Positions 10,793 through 59,250 are shown, numbered from the stretch's first letter. The stretch: DNA of 64,000 bases from Nitrospirota bacterium (GCA_016208915.1 JACQXE010000037.1:4905-68904), one strand, 5' to 3'. Program-made: numbers and translations. Notes: generated by a model not told the origin, from the sequence alone.

Positions 10793-11347
10793 ATGGGAAT
10801 AGCTGAGAGTATGAAAGAGATTACAGAAAATATTATTACTTCCTATGAGGAAAGGGCAAAGGCACTTGGTGATTTGGTATCTGATACCCATGCAACCTTA
10901 AAAGGGTTTGCGCAAGACCGTGAAAAAATGGCTGGTGAGCAACGAGAAACTCTATCTAAATTTACAAAGGATTTGTCAAAGAGCGTAGGAAATATGCTTA
11001 AAGAGTTCAAGAAGGACCATGGACAGATGAGTGATGATCAAACAAAAAACTTAGCAGATTTTATTAAGAATCTGACTAATGATGTAGGTTCAATGTTAAA
11101 TAGGTTTCAAAAGGATCGTGACAAGATGTCAAAGGAACTTAAGAACAAACTCGCTAAAGAGGTAAAAGATATTGGAACCTATGTCAAGCAACTCCTAGGT
11201 GAATATAGCTCGGATATGAAGAAGGCGAAAGAGGCCTGGCAGGGTATGTCTAAGACACTGGCCGAAGAGGCGATTGAAGAAGTGGGCGAAGAAGAAGCAG
11301 TTAGAAAGCCCAAGAAGAAGAGAAAGAAAAGAGGAAAGAAGAAATAG
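10793..11347 (+). CDS. repeat protein with four tandem 33-residue repeats and a poly-Lys tail (GvpC-like by architecture)
   Basis: These segments align without gaps at a 33-aa period: LVSDTHATLKGFAQDREKMAGEQRETLSKFTKD / LSKSVGNMLKEFKKDHGQMSDDQTKNLADFIKN / LTNDVGSMLNRFQKDRDKMSKELKNKLAKEVKD / IGTYVKQLLGEYSSDMKKAKEAWQGMSKTLAEE. Confidence 0.65.
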   Translation: MGIAESMKEITENIITSYEERAKALGDLVSDTHATLKGFAQDREKMAGEQRETLSKFTKDLSKSVGNMLKEFKKDHGQMSDDQTKNLADFIKNLTNDVGSMLNRFQKDRDKMSKELKNKLAKEVKDIGTYVKQLLGEYSSDMKKAKEAWQGMSKTLAEEAIEEVGEEEAVRKPKKKRKKRGKKK

Positions 11348-11387: not shown

Positions 11388-12302
11388 ATGATTGATGAGA
11401 TGACTACGGTATTGGAGCCGAGTCCTCTGCCAGACTTTGTGGAGACAAAGTATATCAAGGATATCACTAAGAGGGCACTTGACTATATAAAGGCAGGTTT
11501 TCCAGTCCATTTTAGAGGGGTATCCGGTTCCGGCAAGACTACGTTGGCTATGCACATAGCAAGTAAGATTAAAAGGCCGATGGTAATGATTCATGGAGAT
11601 GAAGAATTCACAACCTCTGATCTTGTAGGTGGTGAATATGGTTACAGAATCAGAAAGGTTGTAGACAGATTTATCTCACGGGTATTAAAAACAGAAGAGG
11701 ATATGGTAAAGCGCTGGGTGGATAACCGTCTGACCGTTGCCTGTAAGTATGGATTTACCTTGATATATGATGAATTTACACGTTCAAGGCCAGAGGCAAA
11801 TAATATCCTTCTTTCTATTTTACAGGAGAAGATGATGGATTTGCCGGTAGGAAGAGGCGGTGAGGAACCATATTTAAGAGTAGATCCAAATTTTACTGCT
11901 ATTTTTACATCTAATCCTGAGGAATATGCCGGTGTCCACAGGAGCCAGGATGCCTTAAGGGACAGAATGATAACCATGGACTTAGACCACTTTGACTATG
12001 ATACAGAGGTCGCAATAACTCAGGCGAAATCTAAACTTTCTAAAAAGGATTCTGAGAAAATAGTGAATATTGTAAAAGGTTTAAGAGAATCCGGGAAGTG
12101 CGAGTTTGCTCCAACTATTCGCGGATGTATTATGATTGCAAAAACCCTTAAAGTTCAGGGTATCACTCCTACAAGTGCCAATGGCGCCTTTATGCCGATT
12201 TGCCAGGATATATTGGCCTCTGAGACGAGCAGGATTGGCTCAAAGACGAATCAGAGCAGGGTAAAAGAGACAGTTAAGGAGTTGGTTGAGAAGTATAGTT
12301 AG
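11388..12302 (+). CDS. gvpN: gas vesicle protein GvpN (AAA+ ATPase)
   Basis: 304 aa. Walker A GVSGSGKTT, Walker B LIYDEF, GvpN-like length, and position after gvpA and the C-like genes. Confidence 0.85.
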   Translation: MIDEMTTVLEPSPLPDFVETKYIKDITKRALDYIKAGFPVHFRGVSGSGKTTLAMHIASKIKRPMVMIHGDEEFTTSDLVGGEYGYRIRKVVDRFISRVLKTEEDMVKRWVDNRLTVACKYGFTLIYDEFTRSRPEANNILLSILQEKMMDLPVGRGGEEPYLRVDPNFTAIFTSNPEEYAGVHRSQDALRDRMITMDLDHFDYDTEVAITQAKSKLSKKDSEKIVNIVKGLRESGKCEFAPTIRGCIMIAKTLKVQGITPTSANGAFMPICQDILASETSRIGSKTNQSRVKETVKELVEKYS

Positions 12303-14098: not shown

Positions 14099-15112
14099 GT
14101 GGATGGCATTATAAGCGGACTATTAGAGCCGTCATTGAAGCTGATTCTATTCGGCGGGAAGGGAGGTGTTGGGAAGACTACCTGCGCCGCAAGTGCAGGG
14201 CTTTATTTAGCAAACAACAATAAGAATACCTTGCTTATCTCCACTGACCCAGCACATTCTTTATCGGACAGTCTGGGCAAGGAGATTACGAATGAGATAA
14301 CGCAGATAAAAGGAGTAGATAAATTAAGTGCTATGGAGATAAGCGCGGAAAAGGCATTGTCAAGTTTCAAAGCAGAATATCAAGATGAACTGAAAAGACT
14401 CTTTGATACAAGCACTTATTTAGATAAGGAAGATATAGATTCCATACTTGAGCTGCCTATACCAGGCATAGACGAGGTAATGGGATTCAAGGTCATTGTG
14501 GATTTAATTGAAAAGGAAGAATTTGACAAATACGTAGTGGATACTGCGCCAACAGGCCATGCCCTGAGGCTTTTGACTCTGCCTGAACTCTTAGATGACT
14601 GGATAAAGGTTCTGGCAAAGATGAGATGGAAATACAGATATATGGTTACTACCTTTGCCGGTAAATACAGGCCTGACAGCGCTGATGATTTTCTTATGAG
14701 CATGAAAAAAACAGTCAAAAAAATTGAGGGGCTGCTGAAAGATGAGAACAGATGTGAATTCATAGTTGTCACGATCCCTGAGGATATGGCTATTAAAGAA
14801 ACAGAGAGGCTGATAAGAAATCTGAATCAATACGGGATGAAGGTGAAGCAGTTGATTATCAACAATGTTATTCCAGAGGGAGACAGGTGCAGTTTTTGTC
14901 AAGCGAGGAGAAAAGGCCAGGACAAATATATCAAAGAGATTAGAGATAAATTTAGCGATTTAAATATAACGGTTATTCCCCTTCAGCCCCACGAGGTAAA
15001 AGGGATAAATGCACTGAAAAACTTAGAAAGTATGATATTTAGCAAGAACGCACAATGTCACCCTGAACTTGATTCAGGGTCTAAAAGAGACGCTGAAACG
15101 AGCCTGCCCTGA
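14099..15112 (+). CDS. Get3/ArsA-family ATPase with a CxxC motif; the last ~20 codons are repeat-derived
   Basis: P-loop GGKGGVGKTT, STDPAHSLSD, DTAPTGHALRLL, and CSFCQARRKGQDKYIKEI...VIPLQPHEVKGINALKNL, which resembles the Get3 CxxC dimer-zinc region. The C-terminal HPELDSGSKRDAETSLP is the translated hairpin repeat. Confidence 0.8.
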   Translation: MDGIISGLLEPSLKLILFGGKGGVGKTTCAASAGLYLANNNKNTLLISTDPAHSLSDSLGKEITNEITQIKGVDKLSAMEISAEKALSSFKAEYQDELKRLFDTSTYLDKEDIDSILELPIPGIDEVMGFKVIVDLIEKEEFDKYVVDTAPTGHALRLLTLPELLDDWIKVLAKMRWKYRYMVTTFAGKYRPDSADDFLMSMKKTVKKIEGLLKDENRCEFIVVTIPEDMAIKETERLIRNLNQYGMKVKQLIINNVIPEGDRCSFCQARRKGQDKYIKEIRDKFSDLNITVIPLQPHEVKGINALKNLESMIFSKNAQCHPELDSGSKRDAETSLP

Positions 15113-15161
15113 AGAGATTCTGAACCAAGTTCAGAATGACACTTTCAGGGTTCAGCATGAC
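15057..15161. repeat. compound hairpin repeat element (GTCA...ATGAC family) spanning the Get3-like/Cdc48-like junction
   Basis: gtcaccctgaacttgattcagggt...gattctgaaccaagttcagaatgac...ttcagcatgac. Confidence 0.8.
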
Positions 15162-31587: not shown

Positions 31588-31697
31588 TCGTATTACCTCT
31601 CAGAAATCGAATAAATCTTCATATGCATTATAACTTTATGCAGCTTTGATTGACAAGAGAATAGCGGTTTGTTAGCATTTTTACTGGAGGAAAGGCA

Positions 31698-32132: not shown

Positions 32133-32883
32133 ATAGGGACACATCCCATTATTACCCTGCTTTCTTCCTGGGTCTGCCCCGTGGTCTCAGCGCTAAGTCC
32201 CTTCCGGTTTTTCTTTCCATCCTTTTCATGAACGCTTCATCTCCAAGCGGTTTGCCTGTCCTCGTATGATAGCGTATCAAGTCCCTGTCTTTCTCTGCGC
32301 TCGTTTCTCTGATAAACTCCCTGTAATCCTTTCTCTGTGTTTCTGCAATAAGCTCCTCGTTTAAAAGGTCGTCTGGTTTCCCCATTATATGAGCCCGCGC
32401 ACTTGAGTATGCGTAGTCTTCTGCTTTTTTCACCATCCGGGCACGTACAGGGTTCGTCTCTATGTATCTTGCAACTGCCCAGAGATAGGAATCCTTATCC
32501 ACAATGCAGGAATGGTACCTGCTCTCCCATAATCTTCCTGTGCGGCTATATTTTCTGTTTGTAAATTGTGTGTAGCAAAGCGTAACTCCCTGCATCATTT
32601 TGTACAGGGAATCGTTTTCTTTGGGCTTAATCAGCAGATGCACATGGTTTGACATCAGACAATAGGCCAGTATCCGGGCATCTCTTTCCATGGAATATTT
32701 TTTCTTATGTTTAATATATTTTTCCCGGTCTTCATCGTCACTGAATACCTTTTCTCTGTTGTTTCCCCTCTGCACTACATGATGTGGAAAACCGGCTGCA
32801 ACGGCCCGTGCGATTCTTGCCATGTCGAAATTCTACCGGAGAGAGGCGGGCTTGTCAAGTAAAATAGGATGTGTCCCTATTTA
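32130..32883. mobile_element. RAYT-type transposase unit bounded by 21-bp inverted repeats
   Basis: taaatagggacacatcccatt (32130-32150) is the reverse complement of aataggatgtgtccctattta (32863-32883) at 20 of 21 positions. The repeats flank ORF 32152..32823. Confidence 0.8.
32152..32823 (-). CDS. REP-associated tyrosine transposase (RAYT) / IS200-like Y1 HUH transposase family
   Basis: PHHVVQRGNNRE..., HUH motif LMSNHVHLLIKP, and ARYIETNPVRARMV (catalytic Tyr region). Confidence 0.85.
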   Translation of the reverse strand: MARIARAVAAGFPHHVVQRGNNREKVFSDDEDREKYIKHKKKYSMERDARILAYCLMSNHVHLLIKPKENDSLYKMMQGVTLCYTQFTNRKYSRTGRLWESRYHSCIVDKDSYLWAVARYIETNPVRARMVKKAEDYAYSSARAHIMGKPDDLLNEELIAETQRKDYREFIRETSAEKDRDLIRYHTRTGKPLGDEAFMKRMERKTGRDLALRPRGRPRKKAG

Positions 32884-32908
32884 TTTATTCATTTATTTAT
32901 TTATTTAT

Positions 32909-33553
32909 CTGTCGCGTGAGGAGGTCAACGCTGTTATTCAGAACCTCTATCCGCCCTATGACCTGTTCGTGAAGACGCTCTACGGCTGCAGGCTGCGGTT
33001 GTTCGAGTGCTTGAAATTGCGGGTCCATAATTTCAACTTCGATGCCGGCGTGCTGACCATTCACGACGGTAAGGGGAAGAAAGATCGGACCGTCCCTCTG
33101 CCGAAGGTCATCATTCCGGAACTCCTTGCTCAGCTTGAGCGGGTGAAGACGCTGCATGAGAAGGACCTGTCCGTAGGATTTTCAGGCGTCTTTCTGTACC
33201 ATCTGCTCGAAAAGAAGTACAAGAACGCTGCAAAGGATCTAGTGTGGCAGTGGTTCTTCGCGCAAAAGTCGTTGACTATCGTGGAAGATACGAAGGAGCG
33301 ACGGCGTTATCATCTCAACGAGCGTGATGTCCAGAGGGCCATACGGGCAGCAGTGGGAAGGGCAAAGCTCACGAAGCGCGTCTCGTCCCACACCTTCCGC
33401 CACAGCTTTGCTACGCACCTGCTTCAGGCAAATTACGACATCCGCACGATTCAGGAACTGCTCGGGCATTCGGACGTGAGGACGATCATGATATACACTC
33501 ACTGTGTGCCGAGCAGAACTCTCAAAGAGATGAAGAGCCCGCTGGATTTTTGA
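32909..33553 (+). pseudogene. intI: integron integrase (IntI) lacking roughly its N-terminal 100 residues
   Basis: LSREEVNAVI...LYGCRLRLFECLKLRV...DGKGKKDRTVPLP...LLEKKYKNAAKDLVWQWFFAQKSL...RRRYHLNERDVQRAIRAAV...HTFRHSFATHLL...LGHSDVRTIMIYTH. It has the IntI-specific insertion and the R-K-HxxR-H-Y catalytic residues. The N-terminal domain is replaced by RAYT IR/(TTTA)n sequence. Confidence 0.8.
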
Positions 33554-37833: not shown

Positions 37834-37891
37834 AGGATTAGACAAGCATATCAGGATTCAAAAGTTTTCAGTGCGAGAAGAACAGACATTT

Positions 37892-37934
37892 CTCAAAAAT
37901 TTCTTTAACTCGATAGATTATTGAGAGTATCTTG
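37892..37934. repeat. 43-nt conserved intergenic motif, copy 1
   Basis: ctcaaaaatttctttaactcgatagattattgagagtatctt. It is near-identical to 41253..41294. Confidence 0.75.
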
Positions 37935-38083
37935 ATTTGTTATACTCGATAATAATGTTTCGGAAGTCATCACTGAGAGGTACACTAAGGTATCGAAAAA
38001 TAAATTTTTTCTAAACGTCTGTTCTTCCATTAGAGCAATGGATGGTATTTAAGCGGATTTTTTCTAAAAAATATCAATGGCGC

Positions 38084-41230: not shown

Positions 41231-41252
41231 ACCGTGCTAAAGGTAAAGGTTG

Positions 41253-41294
41253 CTCACAAATTTATTTAACTCGATAGATTATTGAAGTTATCTT
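41253..41294. repeat. 43-nt conserved intergenic motif, copy 2
   Basis: ctcacaaatttatttaactcgatagattattgaagttatctt. Confidence 0.75.
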
Positions 41295-52644: not shown

Positions 52645-54030
52645 TTATTTCCTGGGCACATGAATTGCCTCGCCATGAACGTCTTCGGAGGCTTCCATAA
52701 TCCCCTCTGAAAGGGTAGGGTGCGCATGTATTGTCTCTGCAATATCTTTTACTGTTAAACCTGTTCTTATCGCAAGCGCACCTTCATGTATGAGGTCAGA
52801 AGCATGAGGGCCGATGATATGCATACCGAGAAGCTTATCGGTAGACGAATCTGCAATAACTTTTATGAACCCTGTTATCTCACCGGCAGCATGAGCCTTA
52901 CCGAGAGATCTGAACTGAAAATTACCCGTCTTTATCCTGAGTCCTTTCGCTTCAGCCTGATATTCTCTGAGACCGACAGATGCAATCTCAGGGGATGTAA
53001 ATATTGCAGCGGGAACAGTGGTATAATCCATTGTGTTATTCTTGCCTGTTATATTATTGGCAGCGACAATCCCTTGTTTTGATGCAACATGTGCAAGCAT
53101 CATCTTTCCCGTGACATCGCCTATGGCATAGATATCCTGCACATTCGTTTCCATCTTTTCATTTACTATTATTTCATTCCTTTTCCCTTTCTCAATGCCG
53201 ACATTTTCAAGACCGATACCGTCGCTGTTGAGTGCCCTTCCAATCGAGACGAGTATTTTCTCGGTTATTATTTCCTTGCCGTCAGAGAGAACGGCGTGTA
53301 CATTATCACCTTTTATTTCAACCTTTTCGACCCTTACATTCGTGTAGAGTTTTATTTTTTTCTTTTTTAGTTCCTTTTCAAGGAGCTCAGATATCTCTGT
53401 GTCCTCTGTGGCAACTGCCCTCGGAAGCATTTCGACCATAGTTACATCGCTGCCGAGTTCTTTATAGATGCAGGCAAATTCGCAGCCAATAACACCGGCG
53501 CCGATGATAAGAAGACTCTTTGGCAATTCTCTGAGATTGAGGGCGTCGTCACTGGACAGTATTTTTTTCCCGTCAAATATGAAGGAGGGTATCTGAGCCG
53601 GTCGCGAACCAGTTGCTATTATTATTTTGTCAGCCTGAATCTTTTCTGCTGAGCCGTCTTTCCCTTTTATCTCTATCTCTTTTGGAGATATGATGACGCC
53701 TCTGCCTTCTTTTAATGTTATCCCCCAGCTTTTAAAAAGCCCTCTGATTCCCTTTACCTGTATGCTTACTACCTTGTTTTTTCTTTCTATTATCTTGTTG
53801 AGATTTGGGGCGACACTGCCTTTCAGGTCTATTCCATATTCTTCAAGCCTTGTTGCCTTTGAATACGCCTCTGCTGATGCAACAAGCGCTTTGGTTGGAA
53901 TGCATCCCCAGTTGAGACAGGTTCCTCCGACTTCTTTGTCTTCTATAACAGTGACCTGTGCACCCTGCTGTGCAGCCTTTAACGCTGCAACATATCCTCC
54001 AGGTCCTGCCCCGATTATGGAAACTCTCAT
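52645..54030 (-). CDS. lpdA: dihydrolipoyl dehydrogenase
   Basis: GAGPGGYVAALKAAQ..GGTCLNWGCIPTK (redox-active CxxxxC), and HAHPTLSE. Confidence 0.92.
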   Translation of the reverse strand: MRVSIIGAGPGGYVAALKAAQQGAQVTVIEDKEVGGTCLNWGCIPTKALVASAEAYSKATRLEEYGIDLKGSVAPNLNKIIERKNKVVSIQVKGIRGLFKSWGITLKEGRGVIISPKEIEIKGKDGSAEKIQADKIIIATGSRPAQIPSFIFDGKKILSSDDALNLRELPKSLLIIGAGVIGCEFACIYKELGSDVTMVEMLPRAVATEDTEISELLEKELKKKKIKLYTNVRVEKVEIKGDNVHAVLSDGKEIITEKILVSIGRALNSDGIGLENVGIEKGKRNEIIVNEKMETNVQDIYAIGDVTGKMMLAHVASKQGIVAANNITGKNNTMDYTTVPAAIFTSPEIASVGLREYQAEAKGLRIKTGNFQFRSLGKAHAAGEITGFIKVIADSSTDKLLGMHIIGPHASDLIHEGALAIRTGLTVKDIAETIHAHPTLSEGIMEASEDVHGEAIHVPRK

Positions 54031-54413
54031 TTTGACTCCTCTTCCACGTACTTCTCATAATCGGATAAATCCATAAGATTATCAATCTCGGATGTATCAT
54101 CGAGTTCTATTATTGCTGCCCAGCCCTTTCCATACGGGTCTTCATTGATCGTCTCAGGCGTCTCAGAGAGATTTTCATTGACTTCTACAACTGTGCCGCT
54201 TACAGGACTGATGACAGAAGAAGTTGTTTTTGTGGATTCTATCTCAGCAAATTCGCTGTTCGCTTCCACAGCAATACCGACCTCAGGGAGATCTATGTAC
54301 ACAATATCTCCCAGTTGATCCTGAGCATAATTTGTTATACCGATAGTTGCTTTTTTGCCTGTTACCTTAACCCATGTGTGTTCTTTGTGGTATTTGAGTT
54401 CCTCTGGATTCAT
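54027..54413 (-). CDS. gcvH: glycine cleavage system protein H
   Basis: YHKEHTWVK...ESTKTTSSVISPVSGTVVEVN (lipoyl-Lys motif). Confidence 0.92.
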   Translation of the reverse strand: MNPEELKYHKEHTWVKVTGKKATIGITNYAQDQLGDIVYIDLPEVGIAVEANSEFAEIESTKTTSSVISPVSGTVVEVNENLSETPETINEDPYGKGWAAIIELDDTSEIDNLMDLSDYEKYVEEESK

Positions 54414-54471
54414 TTTTTCCTCCTTTTTTCTGTAAGTTTAATCTTTTTTAAATTTACAGGTGGTTGAATTT

Positions 54472-54499
54472 ATTATCACATGATTTTGATGTTTGTCAA
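54472..54499 (-). promoter_or_regulatory. sigma-70-type promoter for gcvH-lpdA
   Basis: The minus strand reads TTGACA (54499-54494), a 16-nt spacer, then TGtGATAAT (-10 at 54477-54472, extended TG). It lies about 55 nt upstream of the gcvH ATG. Confidence 0.45.
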
Positions 54500-54718
54500 G
54501 AAAGTAATTTGCATTACGCTATAATTTTTTCCTCAAACATAAAGGACTGTTACAGATTATCCATCACAGCCGCAAGTTTCAACTGGTTTTTGAAAGGGGT
54601 TTGGTATATGAAATTGACTTCCTTTCTCAGAAAACCATCAGCATCTTCACTGCAGGTTACACCTGCAAGTCAACAGAGTCGGCAAGATGGAAAAAGTGAT
54701 GATTTTTGAGTGAAATAT

Positions 54719-54806
54719 GAATAACACTGTCATCAGCCGCACGGGGCAACCAGCATGATACAAAAACAACCGGGCTTATCCCGTGTCGGCTGGATCTTGT
54801 TAAAAG
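54719..54806 (-). other. attC-like recombination site A (3' end of cassette 3)
   Basis: The minus strand reads CTTTTAAC-AAG-ATCCAGCCGACACGGG...CCCCGTGCGGCTGAT-GACAGT-GTTATTC. The arms pair with two unpaired bases (C, A) on the 5' arm. Confidence 0.7.
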
Positions 54807-55372
54807 TCACGTTTACTTCCGACAACTTCGACGGATACTCTATTCAAAAAATCACAATAAAATCTCAAGGCAAGTTCTGCTATTACTCTCGGCTCAGCTT
54901 TTCCTTTACGCTTTAGATGCTCAATATTTTTTCCCATATGACTGATAGGAGGATTATAAACCACGCCTCGATTCTTCACAGGCAATAATGGGCGATCCCA
55001 CTTTTGCCAGGTAAATTCAACTTTATCGCCTTTTTGCTCGGCCTCGAACTTTGGTTCCCAATCTTTGACCAAGTCTGAAATACTATGCTCATCAACATTC
55101 CGAGCTTGTTGCAAGTAGCTTAAAAGAGGGTCTTTCCTTCGCAACCTTACGACTTCTGCCTCGATTTTTTGCCAATTAGGCATATTATGGACGGCGGCTT
55201 GAGTTTTTATCCAGACCCTTTCAATTCGATGAAGAAACTCTGTCCATGCTTTTTCATACTCAATAAAATCACCGACGCCAATTGCTACCATTCTCCGATA
55301 CGCTTGATCAGCAAGAGAAAATTCCTTAGCAGCATATCTTAGTGCGTGATTCTGTAGCAATTCGAGCGTCAT
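54800..55372 (-). CDS. hypothetical protein (190 aa), cassette-borne
   Basis: The ORF is bounded by attC-like sites B and A. Its stop codon lies inside the inner R-box (C TTT TAA C). A GGAG motif lies upstream of the ATG. I recognise no family. Confidence 0.6.
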   Translation of the reverse strand: MTLELLQNHALRYAAKEFSLADQAYRRMVAIGVGDFIEYEKAWTEFLHRIERVWIKTQAAVHNMPNWQKIEAEVVRLRRKDPLLSYLQQARNVDEHSISDLVKDWEPKFEAEQKGDKVEFTWQKWDRPLLPVKNRGVVYNPPISHMGKNIEHLKRKGKAEPRVIAELALRFYCDFLNRVSVEVVGSKRDF

Positions 55373-55391
55373 ACTTATTTATCTCCAATGA

Positions 55392-55485
55392 CTTCTAACG
55401 GCTTAAATAACCCGCCGGGGCAACCAGCCTTTGCAAAAAAACCGCAGAGGCTATTCCCGGTCGGGCTGGATGCTTTTGTTACACC
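55392..55485 (-). other. attC-like recombination site B (3' end of cassette 2)
   Basis: The minus strand reads GGTGTAAC-AAAAGC-ATCCAGCCCGACCGGG...CCCCGGCGGGTTAT-TTAAGCC-GTTAGAAG. Confidence 0.7.
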
Positions 55486-56443
55486 GTTTTTTCTTTATTG
55501 TTTGTGCTGTATATTCGCTTTGGGGCTCATGCACTGCGGGGAAAGCGTCCATCCATGATAAATCTCTACCGATTACTAATTCTTCCATGGTTGCATGATG
55601 TGTGTTATTCATCGGTACTAGGCGCATTTCAAAACGATGGTTTCGGGCCATTTTTTTAACTTCTTCTGCATTATCATACGTCATTAAGAAATTGCCCTTC
55701 AATGTCTCACACAGAGCAAACAAGTGCTCATGATCAAGGTCATAATGTTTATATAAACGTTTGCCGGCTTTTTTTCCGCCAGCAGTATATGGAGGGTCTA
55801 TAAAGTAAATAGTATCATGTCTGTCAGCGAATTCCTGAATTACTTTCAAGCCATCATAACGACGGAAGTCGATTCTATCAGCAATGTTATTTAGATTTAG
55901 AATTCGTTTAGCTATAGTTGTAGGATACCAGCGGGAATGAATGCCTTTCCCATTCTCGCCGTATTTGAGAAACCCTGAACCTTCGGCAAGAATGCCACCA
56001 TGAAATGTTCGATTCTTAAGAATTGTCTGAAATGCCTTTTCTTTTTGTGTGTGCGGCAGTCTTTTGATTTCAGTTATGACTGCTTCTCTGGATAGTTGAA
56101 AAGTAAGGATGCGGTTCGCCAGCCATTCAGCGTCGCCATTGATTACGGATTTCCATACTGCTGCAATTTCGTCGTCAAGTTCAACCATAACTGCCTTTTG
56201 AACTAAATTTTCAAAAAGAGCGGTCAAGCTAATAATCCCGCCTCCCGCAAAAGGTTCAACAAGTATTCTTGGCTTTGGAAACATGGTAGTAGTCCAATGT
56301 CTGAATGTAGGTACAAACCATGTCTTGCCTCCGGGATAACGAAAAGGGCTCCGTTGAGGAACAGAAGCCACGTTCACCGGCTTAAGTCTTTCTATTATTT
56401 CGGGTAAGTCAGGGAATAGGAGAGATTGGCTGTGCGTAGTCAT
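55451..56443 (-). CDS. Dam-family (D12 class) N6-adenine DNA methyltransferase
   Basis: FRYPGGK..., motif IV FIDPPY. Start chosen at MTTHSQ (56443), 1 nt after the REase stop. The last 11 codons are encoded by attC-like site B. Confidence 0.85.
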   Translation of the reverse strand: MTTHSQSLLFPDLPEIIERLKPVNVASVPQRSPFRYPGGKTWFVPTFRHWTTTMFPKPRILVEPFAGGGIISLTALFENLVQKAVMVELDDEIAAVWKSVINGDAEWLANRILTFQLSREAVITEIKRLPHTQKEKAFQTILKNRTFHGGILAEGSGFLKYGENGKGIHSRWYPTTIAKRILNLNNIADRIDFRRYDGLKVIQEFADRHDTIYFIDPPYTAGGKKAGKRLYKHYDLDHEHLFALCETLKGNFLMTYDNAEEVKKMARNHRFEMRLVPMNNTHHATMEELVIGRDLSWMDAFPAVHEPQSEYTAQTIKKKRCNKSIQPDRE

Positions 56444-56444
56444 T

Positions 56445-57311
56445 TCAGAATGGTTTCCCAATGGTCTTATTAATCGGCGGAGTCTCAATCTGATCGTCGA
56501 GTTTTTCCTGAAGTAGCTTGATAAAATCTTCAACTTTCCCAGGTGATGCCGTAGTTATTGAAAGAAGAGCAGGCTCAAACTCGGTGAAGACTTCGTCCAC
56601 CTTCTTCAGTGAATATTTTCCCGCCTCATGCCCTTTTTCTTCAATCAGTTCCAAGTCGTAAATCAGCCATGCGATATCTGCTTTGGCCTTAGAGACTTTC
56701 TTTAGTTTTGGCAGAGTAGCAAAAAAACTCTTATTCAATGCAACGGCGATTTTCTTTTGCCAACTGTGCAGGATTCCACCCTTGAAAAGAAGCTGAGGCG
56801 CAAGTCTTTTGCGAGAAGATGACAGGTAATCAGGGCGCGGATAATTGGGCTCTTTAGTCCAATCCATTGATGCCCGGTCTTTTGGGTCCTTCATAAAGTA
56901 TGCAAATGGGTCACGCACATTCCCGGAAATATATACCGCCTGAACTTCCAGCGCACCGAAATCATAAATTTTTCCTTTGTCGTCGTAAGCAACAAGCACA
57001 ACATCAATATTTCCAGCAGACTTCCCTTGTGAGTCATTTAAACGAACTTCCGTCAATGAACTCCAGTTCGCGTCTTTTTGAAAAAAGAAGGAAGCGGCGT
57101 CATCAGTAATAAGCCAGTCTTCACGAAATCTAATAGGGCAGGTTATGACCGGATGATTTTCATGATAAATACTGCAAACGCCGAGAGGGTCTTTCGCCTT
57201 ATCTTTCGTGCAATTCGGTACTTTGTTGTTAAAAGGGCACAAGCGATGTGAGCGGTATCTATTAGCCTTTTCTGTATCGTCAGTTGTCAAATGGCCGAAT
57301 ACTTCCGCCAA
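56445..57311 (-). CDS. type II restriction endonuclease, NotI-like family (TTG start)
   Basis: N-terminal FGH..CPF...CTK...GVC...CPIRF Cys cluster, ALEVQAV, and an overall resemblance to NotI as I recall it. It lies adjacent to the methyltransferase. Confidence 0.6.
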   Translation of the reverse strand: MAEVFGHLTTDDTEKANRYRSHRLCPFNNKVPNCTKDKAKDPLGVCSIYHENHPVITCPIRFREDWLITDDAASFFFQKDANWSSLTEVRLNDSQGKSAGNIDVVLVAYDDKGKIYDFGALEVQAVYISGNVRDPFAYFMKDPKDRASMDWTKEPNYPRPDYLSSSRKRLAPQLLFKGGILHSWQKKIAVALNKSFFATLPKLKKVSKAKADIAWLIYDLELIEEKGHEAGKYSLKKVDEVFTEFEPALLSITTASPGKVEDFIKLLQEKLDDQIETPPINKTIGKPF

Positions 57312-57480
57312 TGGTTATCCTACGTTTGCCATAAATGCCTTTCTTTTAAAATCAAATATTTAATGCCTTGTCTTGTAAAGATTATAACGGAATCCAATAC
57401 GATTTTGCACCCCGCCTGGCGGATGGACATTCAGTGTAGTGTTTCAATGGTTTTCGGTTTTATGTCGTTATTTATATTGT

Positions 57481-57577
57481 GGTGTAACGCTGGGCATGAG
57501 CCGACCGGGCCACTCGCGCCTGAAATGAAAACTAAACCAGCTTTAATCCCGGTCGGGCTCGATGCCATTGTTATAAG
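57481..57577 (-). other. attC-like recombination site C (3' end of cassette 1)
   Basis: The minus strand reads CTTATAAC-AATGGC-ATCGAGCCCGACCGGG...CCCGGTCGGCTCAT-GCCCAGC-GTTACACC. The arms are perfect apart from two unpaired C residues. Confidence 0.75.
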
Positions 57578-57582
57578 TTTTT

Positions 57583-57933
57583 TCATTGATTTGGTATTGA
57601 ATAATGAACGGCTAAAAGAAAGCCGATTCCGAGAGTTAGAATAAAAATATAGCAAGATATGACTCGCAAAGAATATTTCTGTTTCCCCCAGATCTTTCGT
57701 GCCGTCATGTAAATTAGCACTCCTGTTGAAAACGCAACGATTCCCGGCACAAGAAGAAAATAAACTGGGACAATCGAAAAGATAAGAAGAGACATTGGGG
57801 CTGGTACATTTTTTACGATTCCAGCCGACGAGAGATATAGCGCCCCATAGCACAGATAGGCAAGCCCAAGAAAAAGGCTGAGGGCTATTATTGGAATAAA
57901 ATTATCTTTAGTGCCGTTATTTATATTATTCAT
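57583..57933 (-). CDS. small 4-TM membrane protein (116 aa), cassette-borne
   Basis: The ORF starts 3 nt after the GTTATAAG boundary and ends 5 nt before attC-like site C. It has no obvious SD. Confidence 0.5.
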   Translation of the reverse strand: MNNINNGTKDNFIPIIALSLFLGLAYLCYGALYLSSAGIVKNVPAPMSLLIFSIVPVYFLLVPGIVAFSTGVLIYMTARKIWGKQKYSLRVISCYIFILTLGIGFLLAVHYSIPNQ

Positions 57934-58131
57934 TACTTATAACATATAATATACGAAGTTCGCCTTTTCCGATAATTTGATAAAATATAGCACAAAGCGA
58001 AACATTAAAGCAGTTTAAAAAATCAATATCCCGAGTTTTATAGTATTTAGTATTTTGCGATAATAAAGACCAAAAGCAAAGTTCGTAAAATATGGAAAAT
58101 TTGTCAAAAGACAGGTAGCTCAATTCCAGCT

Positions 58132-59250
58132 TTATAATTTTTTCTCATATATCCTGTATTGTTTATACAGGCTGCCTCCGATCATTTCAATGATTCTCTG
58201 AACAGGGATGTTGTCTTCAAGTATCCATGAGAACTCGACCCTTCTGTAATCTCCGGCTTTAATACCCTTAAAGCCTTCTCTGAACAGAAGGGCGTCAACG
58301 CCTTTATGACGGTATTCTTTTTTTATGCCGAACAATAAAAGTCTGAGGTCTTTTATCTTCCTTGAATAGTAAAATGCCTTCATTATAGTCAAAGGATTCA
58401 ATCTGCCTTTCATATGTTTCAGCACATAGTTAAAATCAGGCAGGAGTCCCATAAATCCAACAGGTTTCCCATTGTCTTCCGCCATTAATGTCATTTCCGG
58501 GATAACAATCTGTTTCAAATGATTGCCAAGATAATTAATTTCCTCGTCTGTTAGCGGAATGAATCCCCAGTTCTTCTCCCATGCCGAATTATAGACTTCT
58601 TTAAATATTGCCATCTCTTCATCAAAGTCTTTTTTATTGACAGGCCGCGCAGTTATCCCGCGTTTGTCTGCTATTGCGGCAACCCTCAGGACTTTTTCAG
58701 GGAGTTTGTCTTTTACTTCGTATATATATGCGAAAAGGTCTTTTGCCTTATACATTCCATAATCTTCCATCAATGCATTGTAATAGGGCATATTGTAAGG
58801 CGTCATGAGCATGGGATGTTTATCGAATCCGTCAGTAAGAAATCCGCATTCCTCGTTTGTTGAAAAGTTCATCGGTCCTCTTAATATTTCCATTCCTTCT
58901 TTTTTCAGTTCTTCTGATGCGCTGTTGAGCAGGGCAGATGACACCTCATTATCGTTTATGCAATCAAAGAACCCAAAGAACCCTGCGCGTTCATTATGGA
59001 ACTGGATGTGCCTGCTGTTGATTATTGAGGCTATTCTGCCGGCGCATACCCCGTTTTTTTCTGCAATAAAATACCTGACCCTTGCATGTCTGAAGAAGGG
59101 ATTTTTTTCTGAAAACTGCTCTTTAAGGTCTTTTATTAATGGGGGAACATAAAAAGGAACTGCTGAATGTAGGTGTAAATGGAATCTTATAAATTTATCA
59201 AGGTCATTTTTTGTTCTAACTTCTATGATCATTACTCGGGACAAGGGCAA
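58132..59250 (-). CDS. GNAT-fold-like acyltransferase family protein (~370 aa family often annotated N-acetyltransferase)
   Basis: DLDKFIRFHLHL...VPFYVPPLIKDLKEQFSEKNPFF...AGFFGFFDC...GPMNFSTNEECGFL. The assignment is from recalled family resemblance. Confidence 0.55.
   Translation of the reverse strand: MPLSRVMIIEVRTKNDLDKFIRFHLHLHSAVPFYVPPLIKDLKEQFSEKNPFFRHARVRYFIAEKNGVCAGRIASIINSRHIQFHNERAGFFGFFDCINDNEVSSALLNSASEELKKEGMEILRGPMNFSTNEECGFLTDGFDKHPMLMTPYNMPYYNALMEDYGMYKAKDLFAYIYEVKDKLPEKVLRVAAIADKRGITARPVNKKDFDEEMAIFKEVYNSAWEKNWGFIPLTDEEINYLGNHLKQIVIPEMTLMAEDNGKPVGFMGLLPDFNYVLKHMKGRLNPLTIMKAFYYSRKIKDLRLLLFGIKKEYRHKGVDALLFREGFKGIKAGDYRRVEFSWILEDNIPVQRIIEMIGGSLYKQYRIYEKKL

Follow-up and report, generated by a model that had tools for sequence, protein, structure and literature searches.

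Integron cassette arrays without an adjacent integrase are known as clusters of attC sites lacking an integrase (CALINs); they carry about six attC sites on average, many have two, and in the complete genomes of Nitrospirota only two have been reported. A stretch of 64,000 nucleotides from a Nitrospirota bacterium (GCA_016208915.1, JACQXE010000037.1:4905-68904), called the window below, contains a block of three attC sites and three cassettes between a GNAT-like gene and gcvH. This block is very probably a CALIN of an uncultivated Nitrospirota/Thermodesulfovibrionales lineage. A CALIN comprises at least two clustered attC sites with no integron integrase (IntI) nearby, and the default cluster distance of IntegronFinder is 4 kb. 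The three sites of the window lie inside 2.9 kb, and the nearest IntI-like sequence is truncated and 21 kb away. As in described CALINs, the array is small and chromosomal, its cassettes are co-oriented and no intI gene is near. Its contig also carries an intI pseudogene, which sets it apart: according to a statement cited in bioRxiv 10.1101/2022.09.11.507474, about 95% of CALINs are not close to recognisable intI pseudogenes. A preliminary description made from the sequence of the window had proposed the CALIN reading, which is supported by the architecture of the attC sites, the circular-cassette signature, a cassette boundary recovered from Scalindua, empty sites in three relatives and the truncated intI.

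The second close comparison is with cassettes inserted at secondary genomic sites (attG), including single attC sites lacking an integrase (SALINs; bioRxiv 10.1101/2022.09.11.507474). Here, too, the first cassette is joined at G↓TT (the arrow marks the crossover) to DNA that is not an att site, transposon ends do not flank the insertion, and the array is co-oriented with the neighbouring genes, so that host transcription could express the cassettes. The window array differs in having three cassettes instead of one and in the duplicated gene end on either side of the block, a feature that does not result from attG insertion; the empty target was not recovered, and an attG origin is accordingly inferred, not shown. 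The third comparison is with the sedentary integrons of Nitrospirota and relatives (e.g., L151, Thermodesulfovibrionales GCA_030017995.1), whose integrases belong to the same family as the remnant in the window (69-95% identity) and whose cassettes carry toxin-antitoxin, methylase and unknown genes and are divergent from intI. In contrast to these, the window lacks the integron platform (the N-terminus of intI, attI and the cassette promoter, Pc), the array lies elsewhere and its attC family is unrelated in sequence to theirs. A complete integron has a functional intI, attI, Pc and an array; the upstream neighbour of the window array is a conserved GNAT-like gene, and the leader between them holds neither an intI fragment nor a strong promoter.

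The three-cassette array is real but ordinary, a known type of system that leaves the integron concept unchanged. It places an integrase-less array on record for a poorly sampled phylum, with its boundaries defined precisely and its locus compared with empty sites, and adds an empty-site series, a cross-phylum cassette with an exact boundary and two competing modes of origin.

attC sites and cassette boundaries

attC sites have been described (PMC5027507, Nivina et al.) as imperfect hairpins (L''/L') of 57-141 bp with RYYYAAC/GTTRRRY boxes, a variable loop and a spacer of about 5-6 nt that is left unpaired; their two or three extrahelical bases lie on the arm opposite the AAC of the bottom strand and are usually a G and a T with a 6-bp stem between them. 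The region 54000-58800 was read for verification of the boxes, and the minus strand was treated as the top strand because all cassette open reading frames (ORFs) lie on it. The array consists of the following parts.

57936-57943, minus strand: first outer box and left boundary of cassette 1, GTTATAAG, crossover G at 57943; reverse complement of CTTATAAC at 8/8 positions
57488-57942, minus strand: cassette 1, 455 bp, bounded by G↓TT crossovers
57481-57577, minus strand: attC site 3 (of cassette 1), the best-formed hairpin, two extrahelical G on the bottom strand
57577 to 57570, minus strand: inner box of attC site 3 and cassette 1, CTTATAAC
crossover G at 57488, minus strand: outer box of site 3, GTTACACC
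55399-57487, minus strand: cassette 2, 2089 bp, predicted two-gene restriction-modification cassette
55392-55485, minus strand: attC site 2 (of cassette 2), L'' arm intact and identical to that of site 3, L' arm partly degraded
55485 to 55478, minus strand: inner box of attC site 2 and cassette 2, GGTGTAAC
crossover G at 55399, minus strand: outer box of site 2, GTTAGAAG
54725-55398, minus strand: cassette 3, 674 bp
54719-54806, minus strand: attC site 1 (of cassette 3), extrahelical G and T on the bottom strand with a 6-bp stem between, the canonical arrangement
54806 to 54799, minus strand: inner box of attC site 1 and cassette 3, CTTTTAAC
crossover G at 54725, minus strand: outer box of site 1, GTTATTC

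The preliminary description had placed three attC sites on the minus strand at 54719-54806, 55392-55485 and 57481-57577, and all box coordinates were verified in the sequence. The TAAC and GTTA boxes are invariant in the three sites, and the RYYYAAC/GTTRRRY consensus fits save at one or two positions in the boxes of site 1. With lengths of 88, 94 and 97 bp, spacers of 3-6 nt and loops of 34-38 nt, the sites fall within the described range of 57-141 bp, and they have a common arm of 16-17 nt.

Read on the top strand from 54806 to 54719, with extrahelical positions in brackets, site 1 is CTTTTAAC-aag-AT[C]CAGCCG[A]CACGGG ... CCCGTGCGGCTGAT-gacagt-GTTATTC. Its bottom (plus) strand reads ..CCCGTG[T]CGGCTG[G]AT.., with the G and T 6 bp apart, and it has every feature listed in PMC5027507 exactly. 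Site 3 (57577 to 57481) is CTTATAAC-aat-GGCAT[C]GAG[C]CCGACCGGG ... CCCGGTCGGCTCATGCC-cagc-GTTACACC, its two extrahelical G being 3-5 bp apart. Site 2 (55485 to 55392) is GGTGTAAC-aaaagc-ATCCAGCCCG[A]CCGGG ... CCCGGCGGGTT..-GTTAGAAG; it has an extrahelical T and a degraded outer stem, and pairing is limited to CCCG[A]CCGGG / CCCGG-CGGG plus one G.T and one A-T pair, the remainder being mismatched. In all three sites the extrahelical bases occupy the 3' arm of the bottom (plus) strand, which does not carry the cassette ORFs; this is the strand expected of attC. Sites 1 and 3 have full bulged stems, and the perfect pairing of the arms claimed earlier for every site fails for the degraded stem of site 2.

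For comparison, three verified attC sites were taken from plasmid-borne class 1 integrons. Class 1 sites of the aac(6')-IIa and aadA7 type (~60 bp) have the same RYYYAAC/GTTRRRY boxes and 3-6-nt spacer, the same extrahelical G and T of the L'' arm 6 bp apart on the bottom strand, and a near-identical L'' core, AGCCGAC. The aac(6')-IIa site reads ATT[C]AAGCCG[A]CGCCGC, with an L'' core almost equal to that of site 1, and the L'' motif of the window, [C]CAGCCG[A]C, is nearly identical to its [C]AAGCCG[A]C. The window sites differ from the class 1 sites in their longer loop (34-38 nt, in a total of 88-97 bp), as in chromosomal arrays, in the inner extrahelical base of site 3, which is G and not T, and in the degradation of site 2.

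Each cassette would have been captured by an integron integrase that recombined its attC hairpin, folded from the bottom strand, at the conserved G↓TT, and such capture would leave a signature in which the start of a cassette is the complement of its own inner box. This cassette logic, recognised in the preliminary description, was borne out: cassettes 1, 2 and 3 match their own boxes at 8/8, 8/8 and 7/8 positions, compared with 4-7/8 for wrong partners. The test is sharp only for cassette 2 (GTTACACC to GGTGTAAC, 8/8 complementary), the boxes of cassettes 1 and 3 being similar to one another. Upstream of the first outer box (57936-57943) there is no attC site.

Cassettes and their genes

Cassette 3 provided evidence for the array from outside the window. 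Its ORF (54800-55372, minus strand), the stop codon of which lies within its own inner box, encodes a 190-aa protein with no match in Pfam, NCBIfam or PADLOC. An AlphaFold2 model of the protein was confident (predicted local distance difference test score of 85), and no fold in the PDB matched the model better than E = 0.67. Homologues of 73-85% identity were detected in metagenome-assembled genomes of Scalindua, Omnitrophica and Burkholderiales. In Candidatus Scalindua (L161, GCA_052827725.1, 9990-10640), the DNA is 88% identical to that of cassette 3, begins exactly at GTTA(A/G)AAG and ends a few bases past the inner box CTYTTAAC; its start, GTTAAAAG, is an 8/8 complement of the window inner box CTTTTAAC. 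Homology starting at GTT independently supports both a true cassette boundary at 55399 and a movement of the cassette between phyla; the cassette is common to Nitrospirota and Planctomycetota. The Scalindua homologue sits in an integrase-less run of small genes on the same strand, including HicB and PemK genes, and the sequence downstream of it is unrelated to the window attC and has no attC fold. At the Scalindua locus, the attC may either have decayed or have been exchanged at the AAC of the inner box.

Cassette 2 carries two genes.

56445-57311, minus strand: NotI-family type II restriction endonuclease, 288 aa (PF12183, E = 4e-64; PADLOC REase_II)
55451-56443, minus strand: D12/Dam-class N6-adenine DNA methyltransferase (PF02086, TIGR00571; best PADLOC match PD-Lambda-5_B, E = 1e-40)

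The likely ATG of the methyltransferase is at 56443, 2 nt after the endonuclease gene, and the gene call in the independent assembly L160 also begins there. The methyltransferase frame runs about 35 nt into attC site 2 (55451-55485), so that the inner box and the L'' arm supply its stop and the 11 codons before it (..RCNKSIQPDRE). Restriction-modification is the function predicted for cassette 2 from these profiles. Like the defence cassettes already known in integrons (bioRxiv 10.1101/2024.07.02.601719), cassette 2 holds a complete predicted restriction-modification system, both genes included, in a single cassette. The window cassette differs in pairing a NotI-family nuclease with a D12 methylase predicted, likewise from its profile, to produce N6-methyladenine, and it would add such a pair to the defence functions carried as integron cassettes.

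Cassette 1 has an ORF (57583-57933, minus strand) for a predicted membrane protein of 116 aa, for which searches of Pfam, NCBIfam and PADLOC gave no family match. A resemblance of this protein to a membrane ORF in the corresponding spacer of the relative L009 (see below) was tested and rejected. Cassettes 1 and 2 have in common a 21-nt motif, AATATAAATAACGRCAYWAAA (top strand; 57907-57927 and 57458-57478; 18/21 identical), 10-16 nt past the crossover G, and cassette 3 has a related motif, ATAAATAA, at the equivalent place. The motif may have been inherited from a common ancestor of the 5' ends, or it may be a translation-initiation context that the cassettes share.

The insertion locus

The locus was compared with species representatives whose GNAT-like proteins are 74-81% identical to that of the window. 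The gene order epimerase-kbl-GNAT-gcvH-lpd is kept in these relatives, and the distance between the GNAT-like gene and gcvH is 86-90 bp in L006, L008 and L010, 175 bp in L005, 243 bp in L017, 334 bp in L007, 972 bp in L009, 3218 bp in L011 and 3718 bp in the window. The empty sites that the preliminary description had proposed to look for were thus found in three relatives, and this spread of distances indicates that the spacer is a variable spot in the clade. Sites of the window attC family are absent from the GNAT-gcvH spacers of the relatives. In the window, the array lies between the GNAT-like gene and an intact gcvH promoter and is co-directional with both neighbours. The DNA that flanks the cassettes is divided as follows.

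58132-58146 (58146 to 58132), minus strand: first copy of a direct repeat, GAGAAAAAATTATAA, the real stop-codon region of the GNAT-like gene
57944-58131, minus strand: AT-rich leader, 188 nt, between the GNAT-like stop codon and the first crossover
54535-54724, minus strand: trailer, 190 nt, following the last crossover
54519-54534 (54534 to 54519), minus strand: second copy of the direct repeat, GAGGAAAAAATTATAG, left over from the ancestral stop region of the GNAT-like gene and immediately upstream of the gcvH promoter
54472-54499 (54499 to 54472), minus strand: gcvH promoter, TTGACA-16 nt-TG-GATAAT, 11/12 match, intact and conserved in relatives

The insert had been described as 3.2 kb long; comparison with the empty sites puts the extra DNA at about 3.6 kb, leader and trailer included. 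The leader is not attC-like: it has no recognisable attI boxes and no L-box or AAC motif before the crossover, no homologue in the relatives or in the L009 insert, no terminator, and as the sole promoter-like sequence a weak 9/12 match. The otherwise unrelated L009 insert shares about 115 nt with the trailer, at the end nearest gcvH, and the second repeat copy aligns with the GNAT stop and spacer of the empty-site genomes L006, L008 and L010. The repeat bracket may be due to illegitimate recombination or to a partial tandem duplication, or it may represent an att-like core. The trailer element and the bracket, both common to L009, imply that the spacer already held extra DNA in an ancestor and that the cassettes sit inside it.

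Several observations concern the spacer itself. The ~115-nt element (window 54497-54610, minus strand; L009 11849-11963) is 76% conserved, lies just upstream of the gcvH promoter and is absent from the empty-site genomes. The extra spacer DNA of L009 holds two small ORFs and no attC, and this 0.9-kb insert has a similar bracket at the same place (~11100-11113 and ~11965-11985). Homology of the leader or of the unique part of the trailer to the L009 insert was tested and not found, and the trailer as a degraded copy of the GNAT 3' end was rejected, the likeness beyond the last ~45 nt being marginal (score of 33-37 compared with 23 +/- 3.5). A relative assigned to UBA8922 (L011, 1233-4452) has an unrelated 3.2-kb insert in the same spacer with genes for a lipoprotein and a YkuD-type L,D-transpeptidase and no attC. 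An element resembling a miniature inverted-repeat transposable element (MITE), with terminal inverted repeats, is present in the window at 37877-38027 with a partial copy at 41250-41294, and a 74.5%-identical copy occupies the L007 spacer (2857-2963), indicating that the spacer accepts other mobile DNA too.

Tests against chance and against verified attC sites

The identity of the attC sites was judged from box and hairpin features and from models built from the window's own three sites. The 17-mer ATCSAGCCCGACCGGGA occurs twice in the window, compared with 0.09 copies expected. In a hand-made structural alignment of the three sites, 96% of cells pair, a share that falls to 26-43% when the register is slid; compensatory double changes are present at three pairs. 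A covariance model trained on the window sites was run over 84 kb comprising plasmid class 1 integrons and three other loci, and its best match, at 20.5 bits, was the aac(6')-IIa attC site, aligned over its full length in the right register and on the right strand. An nhmmer profile and the covariance model of the three sites gave no further match in the window or in ~320 kb of related loci. An Rfam scan of the window matched no family, Rfam having no attC family.

A number of results weigh against the reading of the block as a cassette array. Single-sequence folds of the sites have modest z-scores of -1.4 to -2.1, and the L' arm of site 2, partly mismatched, has decayed outside a 9-bp core. 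A generic scan for AAC...GTT hairpins, a tool that discriminates poorly, scored site 3 at 26 compared with at most 22 for shuffled sequences, site 1 at 20 and site 2 below 18. Equal values of the structural alignment were reached by 43 of 500 shuffles; because of this, and because the alignment was fitted to structure, it is supportive only. The cross-detection of the aac(6')-IIa site had an E-value of only 0.068, and the other two verified class 1 sites were missed in the same 84-kb search. The window attC family was not found beside the intact intI of relatives (L149, L151, L153-L156) or in syntenic loci, and a metagenome scan with the 16-mer arm returned 120 loci, all of them single chance matches in GC-rich DNA and none attC-like. 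Finally, the whole ~3.6-kb block is bracketed by the 15-16-nt direct repeat of the GNAT stop region, and this duplicated stop, with a trailer part that is common to the attC-free L009, points to a history more complex than a clean cassette insertion. Since the single hairpins are modestly stable and only site 3 is clearly above shuffles, the case for attC rests on the combined features and not on folding energy.

Integrase remnant

Two features of the window, 21 kb from the array, bear on its origin.

32906-33553, plus strand: integron integrase (intI) remnant, corresponding to residues 128-341 of the 341-aa homologue P0003, N-terminal domain missing
32152-32823 (element 32134-32879), minus strand: IS200/RAYT-like Y1 transposase gene (PF01797, NF047646)

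The ORF 32822-33553 matches positions 101-313 of 315 of TIGR02249 at 259.5 bits (cutoff 265), and from 32906 it is 94% identical to the full-length IntI P0003 of a JGI metagenome. The first ~127 IntI codons are absent and PF13495, the N-terminal SAM-like domain, was not matched. The remnant is a true IntI by descent and not an intact member of the family. The preliminary description had named it as the only integrase candidate in the window, and a tblastn search found no other IntI-like sequence in the 64 kb. The RAYT-like gene abuts the intI breakpoint, in place of the missing ~127 N-terminal codons, and is flanked by perfect 13-nt inverted repeats, TAGGGACACATCC (32134-32146 and 32867-32879), which occur nowhere else in the window. 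In the related intact integrons L149, L151 and L153, cassettes are divergent from intI and the attC sequences are of another type.

Origin of the array

The first cassette is joined to plain AT-rich DNA with no recognisable attI or attC, and the array is for that reason most likely either an insertion at a secondary GTT site (attG) or a relocated integron fragment; the locus is a concrete case for weighing secondary-site insertion against integron decay as the source of small CALINs. Expression would depend on read-through from the upstream operon and on signals internal to the cassettes, the array would now be frozen unless another IntI acted in trans, and the restriction-modification cassette may help to retain it.

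The array could well have arisen de novo, with an IntI integrating a single excised cassette or several at a secondary GTT site of the genome. This account has the same mechanism as the cassette capture set out above and differs from it on origin only. Both outer junctions are G↓TT, in agreement with the GWT consensus, and the target as reconstructed (..ATATTATATG↓TTATTCATATT..) consists of plain AT-rich DNA. No integrase, attI or transposon is adjacent, and small CALINs have been proposed to arise by the attG route (Loot et al., bioRxiv 10.1101/2022.09.11.507474). However, the empty leader plus trailer (..TATATG↓TTATTCATA..; ..CGTATATTATATG joined to TTATTCATATTTCAC..) was recovered from no relative, their spacers being shorter and different, and experimental demonstrations of attG insertion are confined to IntI1-3 in E. 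coli and Vibrio.

A somewhat doubtful alternative derives the array from the genome's own sedentary integron, of which it would be a displaced fragment with the leader as a relic attI, split off by the rearrangement that truncated intI beside the RAYT-like gene. It would account for the intI remnant 21 kb away, whose 5' part, attI and array are missing, for cassettes on the strand opposite to intI, as in canonical integrons, and for the identical 16-nt arm in sites 2 and 3, as in homogeneous chromosomal arrays. However, the array is on the 3' side of intI, so that a translocation and not a simple inversion or deletion would be needed; no insertion sequence or transposon end flanks the array; and the leader, without an L-box or AAC motif before the crossover, has no similarity to regions upstream of related intI genes. 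The G↓TT junctions fit the GWT rule of attG and a relic attI equally well.

Capture by the attG route can be joined with the observations on the spacer and on Scalindua in a tentative reading, in which natural attG-route capture in an uncultivated Nitrospirota is combined with turnover of attC by exchange at the inner-box AAC. Taken together, its first half would be a spacer that has repeatedly accepted foreign DNA (the MITE of L007, the two small ORFs of L009 and the 3.2-kb block of L011), and its second half a cassette 3 of which the ORF and inner box persist at 88% DNA identity across phyla while the remaining attC has been replaced or lost.

The hairpins might instead be intergenic palindromes, such as repetitive extragenic palindromes (REP or REPIN type) spread by the RAYT gene of the window, which is highly improbable. 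The window does have a RAYT-like gene, and REPINs are hairpins of 70-110 nt in intergenic DNA. The repeats that flank the RAYT gene are, however, at its two ends only and unrelated to the attC arms. Many dispersed copies related to the RAYT ends are the mark of REP/REPIN elements, whereas the window has just three hairpins in 64 kb, clustered, in one orientation and each closing a cassette. Neither the circular-cassette signature nor a homology in another phylum that starts at GTT is expected of REPINs.

Assembly support and other repeats

Independent per-run Logan assemblies (runs SRR12113399, SRR12113402, SRR12113404 and SRR12113406) reproduce 58009 to 51482 at 100% identity: L160 covers 58009 to 55745, including the whole of cassette 1, and L001 and L002 cover 55766 to 51482. 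The GNAT-to-leader join (58009-58131) is the only one without independent cover. It is extremely improbable that the array is a chimera created in assembling this metagenome-derived genome: attC repeats break assemblies, and one of four Logan contigs begins inside attC site 2 (L004), another a few bases outside it (L003) and the other two ~280 bp away, but independent assemblies span both the leader-cassette 1 and the cassette 3-gcvH junctions at 100% identity.

A fourth, relic attC in the trailer (GGTGTAAC at 54663 to 54656 with an L'-like CAGCCGCAAG) was considered and rejected because it has no hairpin fold, no model match and no box complementarity. The same part of the trailer (54648-54664) contains a perfect 7-bp palindrome, TGCAGGTGTAACCTGCA, that includes GGTGTAAC, the inner box of site 2; it lies outside any foldable attC and is probably due to chance. 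The spacer to the left of the intI remnant (31623-31682, minus strand) has a weak match to the window model (13.1 bits, E = 3; GCTAAC...GTTATAA) with no real stem, which is also probably fortuitous. A strong inverted repeat bounded by AAC...GTT is present at 15047-15152 (scan score of 25), with arms GTCATTCTGAACTTGGTTCAGAATC / CCCTGAATCAAGTTCAGGGTGAC that are unrelated to the attC family.

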